From the sequence record PV682947.1: DNA of 64,000 nt. The stretch is one strand, 5' to 3'. The DNA is from Escherichia phage WPEC4. Shown piece after piece: positions 36,508 to 39,652 of this stretch (the first letter of the stretch is position 1; every line of letters begins with the position of its first letter). The notes under the pieces are model-generated. The model searched no databases and was not told where the DNA came from. It was given only the letters and a program-made list of their open reading frames with translations. A program made the translations under genes and the position numbers.

Positions 36508-37071
36508 ATGATTTATTATATTACTCCCTATCTGACAGGAAATATCGGCAAGGCTATCAATGAAGCTATTGCCGTTCTTCCAGATGATAGTTGGGTGTGT
36601 TTAAGAGATACCGATACAATGTTCCTCCTACCTGATCAACCATCTATGCTTGAAGAGCTTGTTATGTCAAACCCACCTTTTGATGTAATAGGTGCAACTT
36701 GTAACAGGTTAGGCAGTGGTTATCAGCTTTTCTCTAACCAAATTAACGATGATCCAGATATTCTAAACCATATAGAATATGCTAAGATTGCAAGAGAATA
36801 TCATAAAGTGAGTGTTGAAGAAGTTCCTTTCGGAACACCTCTGGCAGGTTTCTTTTTGCTTTTTAGAAAATCACTGTGGAATGAAATTCCTTTCGAAGAA
36901 AAATCTATCCAATTCGACTTAATTTTCTCTCGCACTTTACATGAAAAAGGAAAGAGGTTAGGATTGATGCGGGGAATGTATCTGTTTCACATTTACAGAT
37001 TAGGTCAAACAAATCCTCAACGGTCTATACATCATTTATTACACTGTCACGATCACAGTAAAACTATTTAG
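36508..37071 (+). CDS. putative glycosyltransferase (GT-A-like, DxD)
   Basis: 187 aa; CLRDTDTMF DxD-like motif; adjacent to clearer GT2-like gene. Confidence 0.4.
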   Translation: MIYYITPYLTGNIGKAINEAIAVLPDDSWVCLRDTDTMFLLPDQPSMLEELVMSNPPFDVIGATCNRLGSGYQLFSNQINDDPDILNHIEYAKIAREYHKVSVEEVPFGTPLAGFFLLFRKSLWNEIPFEEKSIQFDLIFSRTLHEKGKRLGLMRGMYLFHIYRLGQTNPQRSIHHLLHCHDHSKTI

Positions 37072-37079
37072 GAGAGAAA

Positions 37080-37763
37080 ATGGAAAATATTAAAATCGGA
37101 GTGGGTGTTATCACTGTAGGTGTCCGTCCACTAAAAGACTACCTTGTAACAGACCCACGTGCAGATTTTCGAGTATTCAACGATCCAGATCGTAAAGGTG
37201 TAGCTTACGCCAGGAATGAACTTATGCACCAGTTTTATGAAGAAGGTTATGATTATTGGTTTATTTTTGATGACGATTGCTACCCAGTTATGGAAGGATG
37301 GGAAACATATTTTGTAGATCAAGCTATCTCTGGAGGATGGGATTTCTTTGGTATGCCGGAATATTTCAAAGATAAAGTTGTCGGGAGCAAAGGAGAAGTT
37401 ATTCTCTGGGAACTTGCAATGTGTCAATTTGCAATGTATTCTCGTGCCGTTGTTGAGAAGATGGGTTATTTCCGCCCTTACACTCACGGCTATGGTTTTG
37501 AAGATGCTGAATGGGGACACCGTTTGAAAGCTGCTGGTTTGAATCATGGTATTCAGGCAACACCTTGTCCACTTCGTATCATGGCTTATATCCACCCAGA
37601 CGATGTTTTTGGAAACAATCCTATGCCTTTTGCTAATCTGACAAAAGAAGAGAAAGAAGCTGCTATTGGGATTAACTGGGAAGAATATAAAGCATCTTTA
37701 GAGGATATTAAAAATGGGAAAATCCGAATTTCCTATGAGGAGGCACTAGCACATGTCAAATAA
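37080..37763 (+). CDS. glycosyltransferase family 2-like
   Basis: VGVITVGVR, GVAYARNE, WFIFDDDCYP, GYGFEDAEWGHRL match GT2 motif order. Confidence 0.55.
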   Translation: MENIKIGVGVITVGVRPLKDYLVTDPRADFRVFNDPDRKGVAYARNELMHQFYEEGYDYWFIFDDDCYPVMEGWETYFVDQAISGGWDFFGMPEYFKDKVVGSKGEVILWELAMCQFAMYSRAVVEKMGYFRPYTHGYGFEDAEWGHRLKAAGLNHGIQATPCPLRIMAYIHPDDVFGNNPMPFANLTKEEKEAAIGINWEEYKASLEDIKNGKIRISYEEALAHVK

Positions 37764-38700
37764 AAAATGGTCTAAACTAAAAATTGATGCAAAACCTCAC
37801 AGCGGTTGTGACTATCATCGTATTGTTATGCCATTTAACAACAATAATCTTCAACCTAAGAAAGATGTTGTTGTGTTTAATCGTATCCACTCTAAAGGTG
37901 CAGAATACGTTTTATCTTTGAAACGTCAAGGTGTTAAGATTGTTGTAGATTTAGATGATTTTTACCAACTTAATCCAGAGCATTATTTAGCAAGTCTATA
38001 CGAGTCAAACACTCATGCTATTGTAGCTATGGTTAAGCTTGCTGATGTGGTCATTGTGACTACGGAATATTTGGCATATAAAATCCGTCATTTAAATAGG
38101 AATGTTGTTGTGATCCGAAATGCACTTCCTTTTGATAGCGGACAATTCACTTTGTCAAATGATCGTTCATCCGGTACTCCTGTCGTATGGGCTGGCGGGG
38201 CTAGTCACGAACCTGATTTACGACTAGTCTCTAACACTTTTGATGATGAACTTCTTACTATTGCAGGATACGAAGCTTCACAGAGCATCACGGGGCAAGA
38301 GTGGATTAAGATCCGCAGAAACTTACCAAATGCCAAATATAAAGCTGCTGTAAAAGATTTAGATAATTACATGAGTGTTTACGAGAGTCATGCTATTGCT
38401 ATAGCTCCTCTAGTGGACAATGATTTTAATAATTGTAAAAGTAATCTCAAAATCTTGGAAGCTGGAGCAAAAGGTATTCCGATTGTTTGTTCTAAAGTGT
38501 TACCTTATTTTAACCCTGTAGATGCTCGTGCTGTTGCTTACGCAGAGAATAAAGCAGAATGGCATTACGAAATTGTTAAACTTCTTCGCAATCCAAATTA
38601 TCGGGAAGATCGTGGCTTGTTCTTAGCAGAACATGTTCGAACACACTACAATCTGGCAGATGCAAATGAGTTGCGACGCCAGGTTATTGAAAGTTTGTAG
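37753..38700 (+). CDS. paralog B1, unknown function (possibly sugar/nucleotide transferase)
   Basis: 315 aa; shares CDYHR, VVFN, PVVWAGG, NNCKSNLKILEAGAKGIPIVCS with 38708..39652. Confidence 0.45.
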   Translation: MSNKKWSKLKIDAKPHSGCDYHRIVMPFNNNNLQPKKDVVVFNRIHSKGAEYVLSLKRQGVKIVVDLDDFYQLNPEHYLASLYESNTHAIVAMVKLADVVIVTTEYLAYKIRHLNRNVVVIRNALPFDSGQFTLSNDRSSGTPVVWAGGASHEPDLRLVSNTFDDELLTIAGYEASQSITGQEWIKIRRNLPNAKYKAAVKDLDNYMSVYESHAIAIAPLVDNDFNNCKSNLKILEAGAKGIPIVCSKVLPYFNPVDARAVAYAENKAEWHYEIVKLLRNPNYREDRGLFLAEHVRTHYNLADANELRRQVIESL

Positions 38701-38707
38701 GTGAAGT

Positions 38708-39652
38708 ATGGGACAAATAATTCTTGACAATCGTAACGGAATCAATTATAGTGTCTGCGATTTCCATAGGGTAGTGCTGCCTTACTCAAGGCAGTTCTCT
38801 TCACAACCTAAACACAACGTTTTCGTTTTTAACGGAGTGCCAACAAAAGGTAAAGAGGGCTTTTTAGCCCTTAAAAACCTAGGTTTTAAAATGGTTATGG
38901 ATTTGGATGACTCTTTAGTTATTCCAAAAGGACACATGTTAGAAGGTATTTTTGAATCAGGTATTCGTGAACATTTAAAATGGTTTTTAGAGCACAGCGA
39001 TCTTGTTACAACTACGACACCTGCCTTGCAAGTTGAACTTTCACAATACAATGATAATGTGCACATAATCCCTAATGGACTTCCTTACGATGAAGGTCAA
39101 TTTGTGTTGACCCGTGATCGCTACTCCAAAACTCCATTAGTCTGGGCTGGAAGTGAAACACATAAACAAGATTTGGCTATCTTGCCCGATTTTGGTAAAG
39201 ATCTTACAATATGTGGTTTTCGTAGGGATTCTGAAGTTTTAAGTAGTCGTGAATGGTCTGTAATCAGAGAAAATGTAGCACCAACTTGTGTTTATGAAGG
39301 TGTGAGACCATATGCCAACTACATGGAATCTTACGATGGTCATCAAATCAGTCTTGCGCCATTGATCGATAACGTGTTTAATAACGCAAAAAGCAATCTT
39401 AAAATTCTTGAGGCAGGTGCTAAGGGTTTACCTTTAATCTGTTCTCCTCGTGAGAATTATCATACACAAGAGTTTAAAGATCTGTTATTCTTTGCTGAAA
39501 CACCTTCCGAGTGGAAAGATATTACGGAATACTTATTAAGTGCTCCCGATGTTTGCATGGAGAAAGGATTAGCATTAGCTAAGTATGTCAGGACTCATTA
39601 TCACATTGATGTGTTGAATGAGCGTCGTAGACTTTTATTTGAGGAGCTATAA
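38708..39652 (+). CDS. paralog B2, unknown function
   Basis: 314 aa; CDFHR, PLVWAGS, NNAKSNLKILEAGAKGLPLICS. Confidence 0.45.
   Translation: MGQIILDNRNGINYSVCDFHRVVLPYSRQFSSQPKHNVFVFNGVPTKGKEGFLALKNLGFKMVMDLDDSLVIPKGHMLEGIFESGIREHLKWFLEHSDLVTTTTPALQVELSQYNDNVHIIPNGLPYDEGQFVLTRDRYSKTPLVWAGSETHKQDLAILPDFGKDLTICGFRRDSEVLSSREWSVIRENVAPTCVYEGVRPYANYMESYDGHQISLAPLIDNVFNNAKSNLKILEAGAKGLPLICSPRENYHTQEFKDLLFFAETPSEWKDITEYLLSAPDVCMEKGLALAKYVRTHYHIDVLNERRRLLFEEL

Follow-up and report, generated by a model that had tools for sequence, protein, structure and literature searches.

The operon at positions 36508–39652 (plus strand) of a 64,000-nucleotide stretch of Escherichia phage WPEC4 (PV682947.1; the whole stretch is hereafter the window) represents the expansion, in one lineage, of a glycosyltransferase cassette that is widespread among phages and usually adjoins the terminase genes. 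Its four open reading frames (ORFs) encode a minimal glycosyltransferase of the GT-A fold (ORF1), a second enzyme that we describe as GT-A-like (ORF2), and two paralogous GT-B, GT4-like glycosyltransferases (ORF3 and ORF4). In the model that we propose, the operon would furnish a soluble glycan-assembly line in which the four enzymes each probably transfer a single sugar from a nucleotide-sugar donor. At least one such donor is probably deoxythymidine diphosphate (dTDP)-L-rhamnose, which the phage would supply through an rmlBADC operon of its own, and the line would yield a short, possibly decorated oligosaccharide attached to an acceptor other than DNA. With a confidence somewhat short of even, we favor virion proteins, one or several, as that acceptor; modified in this way, the particle would be coated with glycan, like those of mycobacteriophages and chloroviruses. 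Genes, folds, catalytic motifs and operon structure are observed, as are the cassette's mobility and its occurrence together with rml genes; which sugars are donated, how many are added and, most of all, what they are added to is what we infer.

ORF3 (37753–38700, 315 amino acids) and ORF4 (38708–39652, 314 amino acids) are 41% identical over 303 residues (E = 1e-77). The sequence-only reading that preceded this analysis had recognized the two as paralogs from shared motifs, and this part of it stands (CDYHR/CDFHR, WAG and NNxKSNLKILEAGAKG), but it had taken their fold to be unknown. Both proteins are composed of two Rossmann domains with an inter-domain cleft and superpose on GT4 enzymes; they are GT-B, GT4-like enzymes. 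Among 29 homologs, the KSNLKILEAGAKG region is nearly invariant, and K229, K233 and the LEAGAKG region vary little or not at all. Curated sequence models register the family at the margin: ORF4 narrowly exceeds the Pfam Glyco_trans_1_2 cut-off (25.2 bits, cut-off 25), ORF3 falls below the cut-offs for Glyco_trans_1_4 and Glyco_trans_1_2 (22.8 vs 27 and 20.4 vs 25), and PF13524 is present in the precomputed annotation of most ORF3/ORF4 homologs. When the ORF3/ORF4 profile was compared to PDB sequences, weak matches to GT4 C-terminal domains were the sole signal. Among viral structures, those closest to ORF3 belong to GT1/GT4-type enzymes from His1, giant viruses and uncultured tailed phages, and the T4 DNA glucosyltransferases are not among its top 50 viral structural neighbors. 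Two GT-B copies are present in the Escherichia phages of the Stephanstirmvirinae, while related Klebsiella phages, small phages and prophages possess one; ORF4 is a duplication of ORF3 within the Stephanstirmvirinae. Homologs of ORF3/ORF4 occur in more than 570 IMG/VR stretches. In five long contigs from uncultured Gammaproteobacteria, Chromatiaceae and Dechloromonas metagenome-assembled genomes (L106–L110), ORF3-like GT-B domains reside inside proteins of 878–1707 amino acids.

ORF1 (36508–37071, 187 amino acids) is a single Rossmann-like α/β/α domain that superposes on known GT-A enzymes and is a member of the GT-A fold glycosyltransferases. The DxD-like CLRDTDTMF, on which the sequence-only reading had relied, is present in the translation; its DxD motif (R33-D34-T35-D36) lies beyond the strand that comes after the first helix, both of its aspartates (D34 and D36) are invariant across 23 homologs, and H161 is conserved. 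The ORF1 family is large, with 977 representatives at 50% clustering in a profile search, and has no curated Pfam model. ORF1-family domains are often fused to TOD1/MUCI70, GT2 and Methyltransf_24 domains, and this joining to further transferases, of glycosyl as well as methyl groups, suggests that glycans are built in several steps.

ORF2 (37080–37763, 227 amino acids) carries VGVITVG, ARNE, FDDDC and GFEDAEWGHRL in the order previously read as that of GT2 enzymes. Across 19 homologs, F63-D64-D65-D66, E141-D142 (within a YG(F/Y/W)ED motif) and an N-terminal G-x-G-x-x-T-x-G-x-R are invariant; a conserved DxD-type motif with an acidic catalytic motif downstream is what a GT-A enzyme would be expected to carry. 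PHROG matches are to phrog_2456 (9.6e-79) and phrog_1579 (7.6e-13), both labeled glycosyltransferase, while all Pfam matches are sub-threshold: TAGT at 19.3 bits (cut-off 27.5), the GT2 family Glycos_transf_2 (PF00535) at 14.4 (23.3) and Glyco_transf_7C at 13.6 (23). Among the 19 family members the same three models give weak matches in 12, six and five proteins, respectively. Because the PF00535 score is below its curated threshold and a weak match is found in only six of the 19 relatives, we call ORF2 GT-A-like, judged from its sequence, and claim no GT2 membership. The ORF2 family profile returned no match to solved structures by sequence, and single-sequence and profile searches of PDB sequences with ORF1, ORF2 and ORF4 yielded nothing useful. 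An hhalign comparison of the ORF2 and ORF1 families detected no relationship, which argues that the two GT-A genes are not recent paralogs. The earlier assignment of the four genes as glycosyltransferases is thereby borne out, with a GT-A fold for ORF1, a GT-A-like ORF2 and GT-B folds for ORF3 and ORF4, where the absence of any glycosyltransferase fold had been named as the finding that would speak against it.

The four genes lie on the plus strand exactly where the sequence-only reading had placed them, and are followed by a small fifth frame (ORF5, 39652–39930, plus strand, 92 amino acids) whose start codon overlaps the ORF4 stop. Spacings from ORF1 to ORF5 are +8, −11, +7 and −1 nucleotides, ORF3 starting inside the end of ORF2, and a Shine-Dalgarno sequence precedes each start; together these features indicate a translationally coupled operon. 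A scan for promoters and terminators gave no signal beyond that of shuffled sequence, whether inside the operon or delimiting it. None of the four proteins possesses a transmembrane segment or a hydrophobic 19-residue stretch typical of a transmembrane helix, and the highest Kyte-Doolittle value among them, 1.65, is located in a Rossmann strand. Positions 36300–40000 are 100% identical to Escherichia phage WPEC1 and approximately 97.7% identical in many Phapecoctavirus genomes (Stephanstirmvirinae), such as tuntematon, ESCO5 and Mt1B1_P17; the cluster genes are shared with phAPEC8, where the ORF3 protein is 99.4% identical. All four ORFs fall in PHROG families labeled glycosyltransferase, and GenBank records already annotate the four genes as glycosyltransferases, with WPEC1 calling the last two ‘GTB-type’. 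NCBIfam returned no match for any protein searched, and the searchable literature reports no function for the cluster genes.

Beyond these close relatives, a different genomic setting for the cassette emerges. In cultured phages, ORF1 homologs occur in the Stephanstirmvirinae (Phapecoctavirus, and the phi92-like Justusliebigvirus at ~66% identity) and in Cellulophaga phages of the genus Helsingorvirus. In the latter, the ORF1-like domain forms the C-terminal half of a 407-amino acid protein whose N-terminal half is TOD1/MUCI70 glycosyltransferase-like, and the fusion gene lies in the head module, with portal and head-morphogenesis genes on one side and prohead protease and major capsid genes on the other. 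A Serratia prophage retains the gene order, with ORF1-like (41% identity), ORF2-like (37%) and ORF3-like (51%) genes flanked by holin/endolysin/Rz genes and by HNH, TerS, TerL and HK97-type capsid genes. Pseudomonas chromosomal prophages present a Big_2 Ig-like protein, the ORF2-like and ORF3-like genes, a metallopeptidase, TerS (DUF2280), TerL and portal in that order, and in a 45.8-kb uncultured phage contig (locus L007) the ORF2-like/ORF3-like pair is located between TerL and portal. In the prophages, the cassette is co-directional with the late lysis-terminase-capsid gene string. The Big_2 protein stands free, at ~208 amino acids, immediately upstream of the ORF2-like/ORF3-like pair (L090, 8639–9265, with equivalents in L092 and L020), and is a possible glycan acceptor as a candidate surface-exposed virion protein.

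We surveyed the genes up to four positions away from the ORF3-like gene in 18 diverse viral loci. The commonest neighbor class was the terminase large subunit, whose PHROG families gave 15 summed member counts (with possible overlap between families). Eight GT2 enzymes, four hexapeptide acyltransferases, and Methyltransf_24 and FkbM methyltransferases of the sugar-modifying type were also encountered, together with ParB-like proteins, a few DNA methyltransferases, and replication genes as single occurrences only. In L007, a protein with nucleotide modification associated domain 5 (Nmad5; 16754–17359, minus strand, E = 1.8e-41) lies amid structural genes; we considered it as a DNA-modification clue and set it aside, as it is confined to that single locus. 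The L007 gene upstream of the glycosyltransferase, a ‘nucleotide kinase’ by its PHROG family, was likewise set aside as probably a small DUF3310-type domain, for which the Pfam match is itself marginal (E = 0.098, 13.2 bits, cut-off 24).

The position of the operon directly upstream of the primase-helicase, methyltransferase and polymerase genes had been taken to favor a nucleic-acid or replication-coupled role. The comparison does not support that argument: the cassette is a mobile module, all or part of which adjoins terminase or head genes in the Serratia, Pseudomonas, L007 and Cellulophaga settings, and the linkage to replication genes is therefore lineage-specific and is not conserved outside the Stephanstirmvirinae. 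Moreover, the plus-strand block around the cluster mixes unrelated functions (vWA-TerF and TerD proteins, a cell-wall hydrolase and ribonucleotide reductases), so that adjacency there says little.

What, then, would the enzymes modify? The complete tuntematon genome possesses an rmlB-rmlA-rmlC-rmlD operon for dTDP-L-rhamnose, beside nrdAB and glutaredoxin genes; in WPEC4, the operon would lie outside the window. RmlC homologs of at least 60% identity are found in 129 phage records and ORF1 in 131, essentially the same set; as these records form one clade, the correspondence reflects co-inheritance and not independent co-occurrence. Four soluble transferases, a nucleotide-sugar pathway, and the glycosyl-, acetyl- and methyltransferase neighbors in relatives together fit the stepwise assembly of an oligosaccharide, and a self-supplied dTDP-rhamnose suggests that the glycan is made whatever the host serotype. 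We favor a virion acceptor because the cassette is repeatedly found in or adjoining the packaging and head genes of unrelated small phages, co-directional with late genes, a placement that fits a product leaving the cell with the particle; because the nearest viral structures are GT1/GT4-type enzymes and not the T4 DNA transferases; and because mycobacteriophages provide a precedent. A broader reading, which we hold more tentatively still, joins two claims: that the cluster and the dTDP-rhamnose pathway may carry out virion-protein glycosylation, the first such case for tailed phages of Gram-negative bacteria, and that the core of the cluster may be a widespread mobile ‘virion glycan’ cassette. 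That core would comprise an ORF2-like GT-A and an ORF3-like GT-B gene, often with an ORF1-like gene, and hundreds of prophages and uncultured phages would carry it beside their packaging and head genes.

The same late-gene placement bears on the host envelope as an acceptor. Here, the enzymes would transfer rhamnose or other sugars onto the lipopolysaccharide (LPS) core, enterobacterial common antigen (ECA) or undecaprenyl-linked intermediates at the cytoplasmic face, masking or altering the phage's own receptors (ECA and outer-core glucose), with the effect of superinfection exclusion or of less binding of progeny to debris. Surface-polysaccharide modification was speculated on by Taha et al. 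2018 (PMC6141743). However, the cluster encodes no flippase and no Gtr-type or other membrane protein besides four enzymes devoid of transmembrane segments, and a strictly lytic phage would have little time to replace its host's surface LPS. Positioning of the prophage cassette inside and co-directional with the late genes, instead of as a separately expressed conversion gene, argues against a role in lysogenic conversion, and homologs lie inside the packaging/head module in the Cellulophaga phages and L007. We judge envelope remodeling unlikely on this evidence.

Glycosylation of the phage DNA, toward which the sequence-only reading leaned, had already appeared in print as a speculation: Olsen et al. 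2020 pointed to the rml pathway and suggested that hydroxymethylated nucleotides might be rhamnosylated through it (PMC7552041). The enzymes would then place, for example, rhamnose or glucose on a hydroxymethylated pyrimidine, perhaps sparsely or at limited motifs. Published phenotypes of relatives speak to this. Two members of Justusliebigvirus, Bas60 (PaulScherrer) and the Durham phage PATM, have the complete four-gene cluster at the equivalent position, ahead of the primase-helicase gene. Maffei et al. 2021 described Vequintavirinae and relatives, including the phi92-like Bas60–62 of the BASEL set, as ‘exceptionally susceptible’ to restriction-modification ‘despite a putative dTDP glycosylation machinery’ (PMC8594841), and a 2026 preprint lists the Stephanstirmvirinae with the families targeted by restriction-modification. 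Picton et al. 2021 found PATM sensitive to bacteriophage exclusion (BREX) by seven orders of magnitude and grouped it apart from 13 phages sensitive to BrxU, a promiscuous GmrSD-family type IV nuclease that cuts DNA with modified cytosine (PMC8565348). These phenotypes, which run contrary to the nucleic-acid role put forward by the sequence-only reading, argue strongly against bulk DNA glycosylation in the lineage, and a rare or motif-restricted modification would be compatible with them.

The gene content points in the same direction. The sequence-only reading had noted no pyrimidine hydroxymethylase in the window; beyond the window, tuntematon encodes a ThyX-type thymidylate synthase and several methyltransferases, while no deoxycytidine or deoxyuridine monophosphate (dCMP/dUMP) hydroxymethylase and no TET/JBP enzyme was found in its genome by annotation and spot checks, which are not an exhaustive hidden Markov model scan. 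The tuntematon gene labeled ‘Dcm’ has no Pfam C5-methyltransferase match, and Nmad5 is present neither in the window nor in the tuntematon genome nor in any locus examined other than L007. The sub-threshold TAGT (PF20691) match of ORF2 is confined to 36 residues around the DxD motif that is common to all GT-A enzymes, and three of the four transferases are acidic (isoelectric points 5.0–6.0). With the replication-gene link also not conserved outside the Stephanstirmvirinae, we consider a DNA acceptor less probable still than envelope remodeling.

A soluble or other acceptor, such as a small molecule, a host protein or RNA, is the most doubtful of the alternatives that we weighed. It draws on ORF3, whose top structural match is sucrose-phosphate synthase and which also matches TreT, BshA, GlgM and SenB highly, all enzymes with small-molecule acceptors, and on the position of the operon just downstream of genes for a vWA-TerF-like protein (33279–34073, E = 9e-38) and a TerD-domain protein (34584–35186, E = 1.5e-28). 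In relatives, the co-directional block adds TerC, a ‘toxic anion resistance’ protein, a phosphoribosyltransferase-like protein, a phosphatase and a hydrolase. By their sequences, these genes appear to form a Ter-type stress or metabolite set in a lytic phage, a product of which could be the acceptor. Against this, many small phages and prophages carry the cassette but have no Ter genes in its vicinity, and four transferases plus a dTDP-rhamnose pathway would be a heavy investment for a soluble metabolite.

Returning to the virion proteins as acceptor, several observations weigh against them. In a relative, neither the major capsid and decoration proteins nor the tube and sheath proteins bear a Ser/Thr-rich C-terminal tail of the kind glycosylated in mycobacteriophages (Ser+Thr content of 7–23% in the last 30 residues, close to the 11–19% across the whole proteins), and such tails are also absent from the capsid proteins of other cassette-bearing phages. 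The operon in WPEC4 is located among early/middle-type genes and not among late structural genes. Enzymes with lipid-linked or small acceptors (such as PglA, PimA/B, WaaG and sucrose-phosphate synthase) also rank among the best structural matches of ORF3. The searchable literature holds no glycoprotein report for phi92-like or phAPEC8-like virions. Proximity to terminase genes is shared by DNA methyltransferases, which are also common upstream of these genes in small phages, and the restriction and BREX data derive from relatives with 66–72% identical enzymes and not from this phage.

Other features of the region and of the tuntematon genome merit description. ORF5 (isoelectric point 4.2, net charge −14) sits directly before the primase-helicase gene and matches phrog_4240 (E = 6e-33), where function is not assigned, and no Pfam or NCBIfam family; it is kept at the equivalent position in Bas60 and PATM. 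Whether it belongs to the glycosyltransferase module is uncertain, and as a guess, its size and charge recall DNA-mimic anti-restriction proteins. Between the primase-helicase and polymerase genes, a 264-amino acid protein (42255–43049) with an NPPF motif and weak Eco57I-type and DNA-methyltransferase matches is probably an N6-adenine methyltransferase. No gene of similar size is found between the two genes in Bas60 and PATM, and PATM encodes an adenine-specific methyltransferase elsewhere in the region (PATM_083). The DNA polymerase I frame in the window (43049–46381) encodes 1110 amino acids vs 865 in tuntematon, with flanks that are 99.8–100% identical. The difference is a 245-residue insertion (approximately 44795–45529, residues 583–827) that begins with Cys, ends in TGN and is followed by Cys in an intein-like manner; the Pfam Intein_splicing model matches weakly (E = 0.007), an intein is annotated in the polymerase of Bas60, and we regard the insertion as a putative intein. 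Lastly, tuntematon gp161 (L003, 43603–44082), a ‘DNA methyltransferase’ in RefSeq, was considered as a counterpart of the methyltransferase beside the Cellulophaga glycosyltransferase and rejected, as the two did not match; gp161 matches the XkdF-type prohead serine protease (PF14550, E = 1.4e-11) and is located between portal and capsid genes, and its RefSeq label is probably wrong.

That the cluster genes are glycosyltransferases is already recorded in their annotation, and the fold classes are ordinary. What is new is the identification of ORF3 and ORF4 as GT-B enzymes, the placement of ORF1 in a large GT-A family lacking a curated model, the recognition of the cluster as the expanded form of a widespread cassette that is mostly terminase-adjacent, and the conflict between a DNA-modification reading and the published phenotypes of relatives. 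Phapecoctavirus and phi92-like phages are among the coliphages of broad host range that are recovered most often, and therapy cocktails make use of them. A self-made, rhamnose-containing virion coat, if present, would bear on how antibodies recognize the particles, how these bind mucus and how stable they are, as has been demonstrated with mycobacteriophages, and would extend virion glycosylation to phages of Gram-negative bacteria. Were host LPS or ECA the target, the cluster would constitute a receptor-masking device in a lytic phage. Under either reading, the assumption that glycosyltransferases near replication genes signify DNA hypermodification is probably wrong for this lineage, with consequences for genome-based prediction of sensitivity to restriction, BREX and type IV systems. 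The ORF1 family (~1,000 clusters) and the ORF3/ORF4 subfamily deserve curation.

Comparison with characterized enzymes places the cluster apart from several known systems. The bacterial GT4 enzymes PglA, PimA/PimB, BshA, WaaG, sucrose-phosphate synthase and TreT are 360–400 residues long, whereas ORF3 and ORF4 are shorter, at ~315, and possess an N-terminal domain with its own conserved CD(Y/F)HR and DLDD motifs. As read from their sequences, both lack the second glutamate of the classical EX7E motif, and only ORF4 barely exceeds a Pfam cut-off. The α- and β-glucosyltransferases of T4 and the TAGT-type second glucosyltransferase of T6 differ in context, in that no 5-hydroxymethylcytosine pathway is annotated in the relative. 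The relatives are also sensitive to restriction-modification and BREX and insensitive to BrxU, the TAGT score is sub-threshold, and many GT4 enzymes that do not act on DNA are structurally closer.

The GtrABC and TarP systems, which convert O-antigen and teichoic acid, belong to temperate phages, while the phage described here is lytic; its cluster possesses neither the GtrA flippase nor GtrB/GtrC membrane components nor transmembrane segments, and in prophages the cassette lies within the late operon. Viral protein glycosylation offers further comparisons. Among minimal viral GT-A enzymes and multi-domain glycan builders, the chlorovirus protein PBCV-1 A064R combines two rhamnosyltransferase domains with a methyltransferase. 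A064R, STIV A197 and mimivirus R655/R699 have as acceptors the proteins of capsids or fibrils in viruses of eukaryotes or archaea; in WPEC4, the domains are separate genes, and identity to these enzymes is 7–16%. Mycobacteriophages such as Che8, Corndog and Myrna glycosylate their virions (Freeman et al. 2023, cited in PMC11256854 and PMC12619734). Their hosts are not Gram-negative, no sequence relationship to the WPEC4 enzymes is detectable beyond fold class, and the Ser/Thr-rich C-terminal acceptor tails have no equivalent here, where glycosylation is predicted from genes. The mycobacteriophages nevertheless resemble our proposal in employing several soluble phage glycosyltransferases, in some cases with sugar-biosynthesis genes, to build a glycan coat on capsid or tail, and their glycosylation genes, like those of WPEC4, do not necessarily reside inside the structural module.

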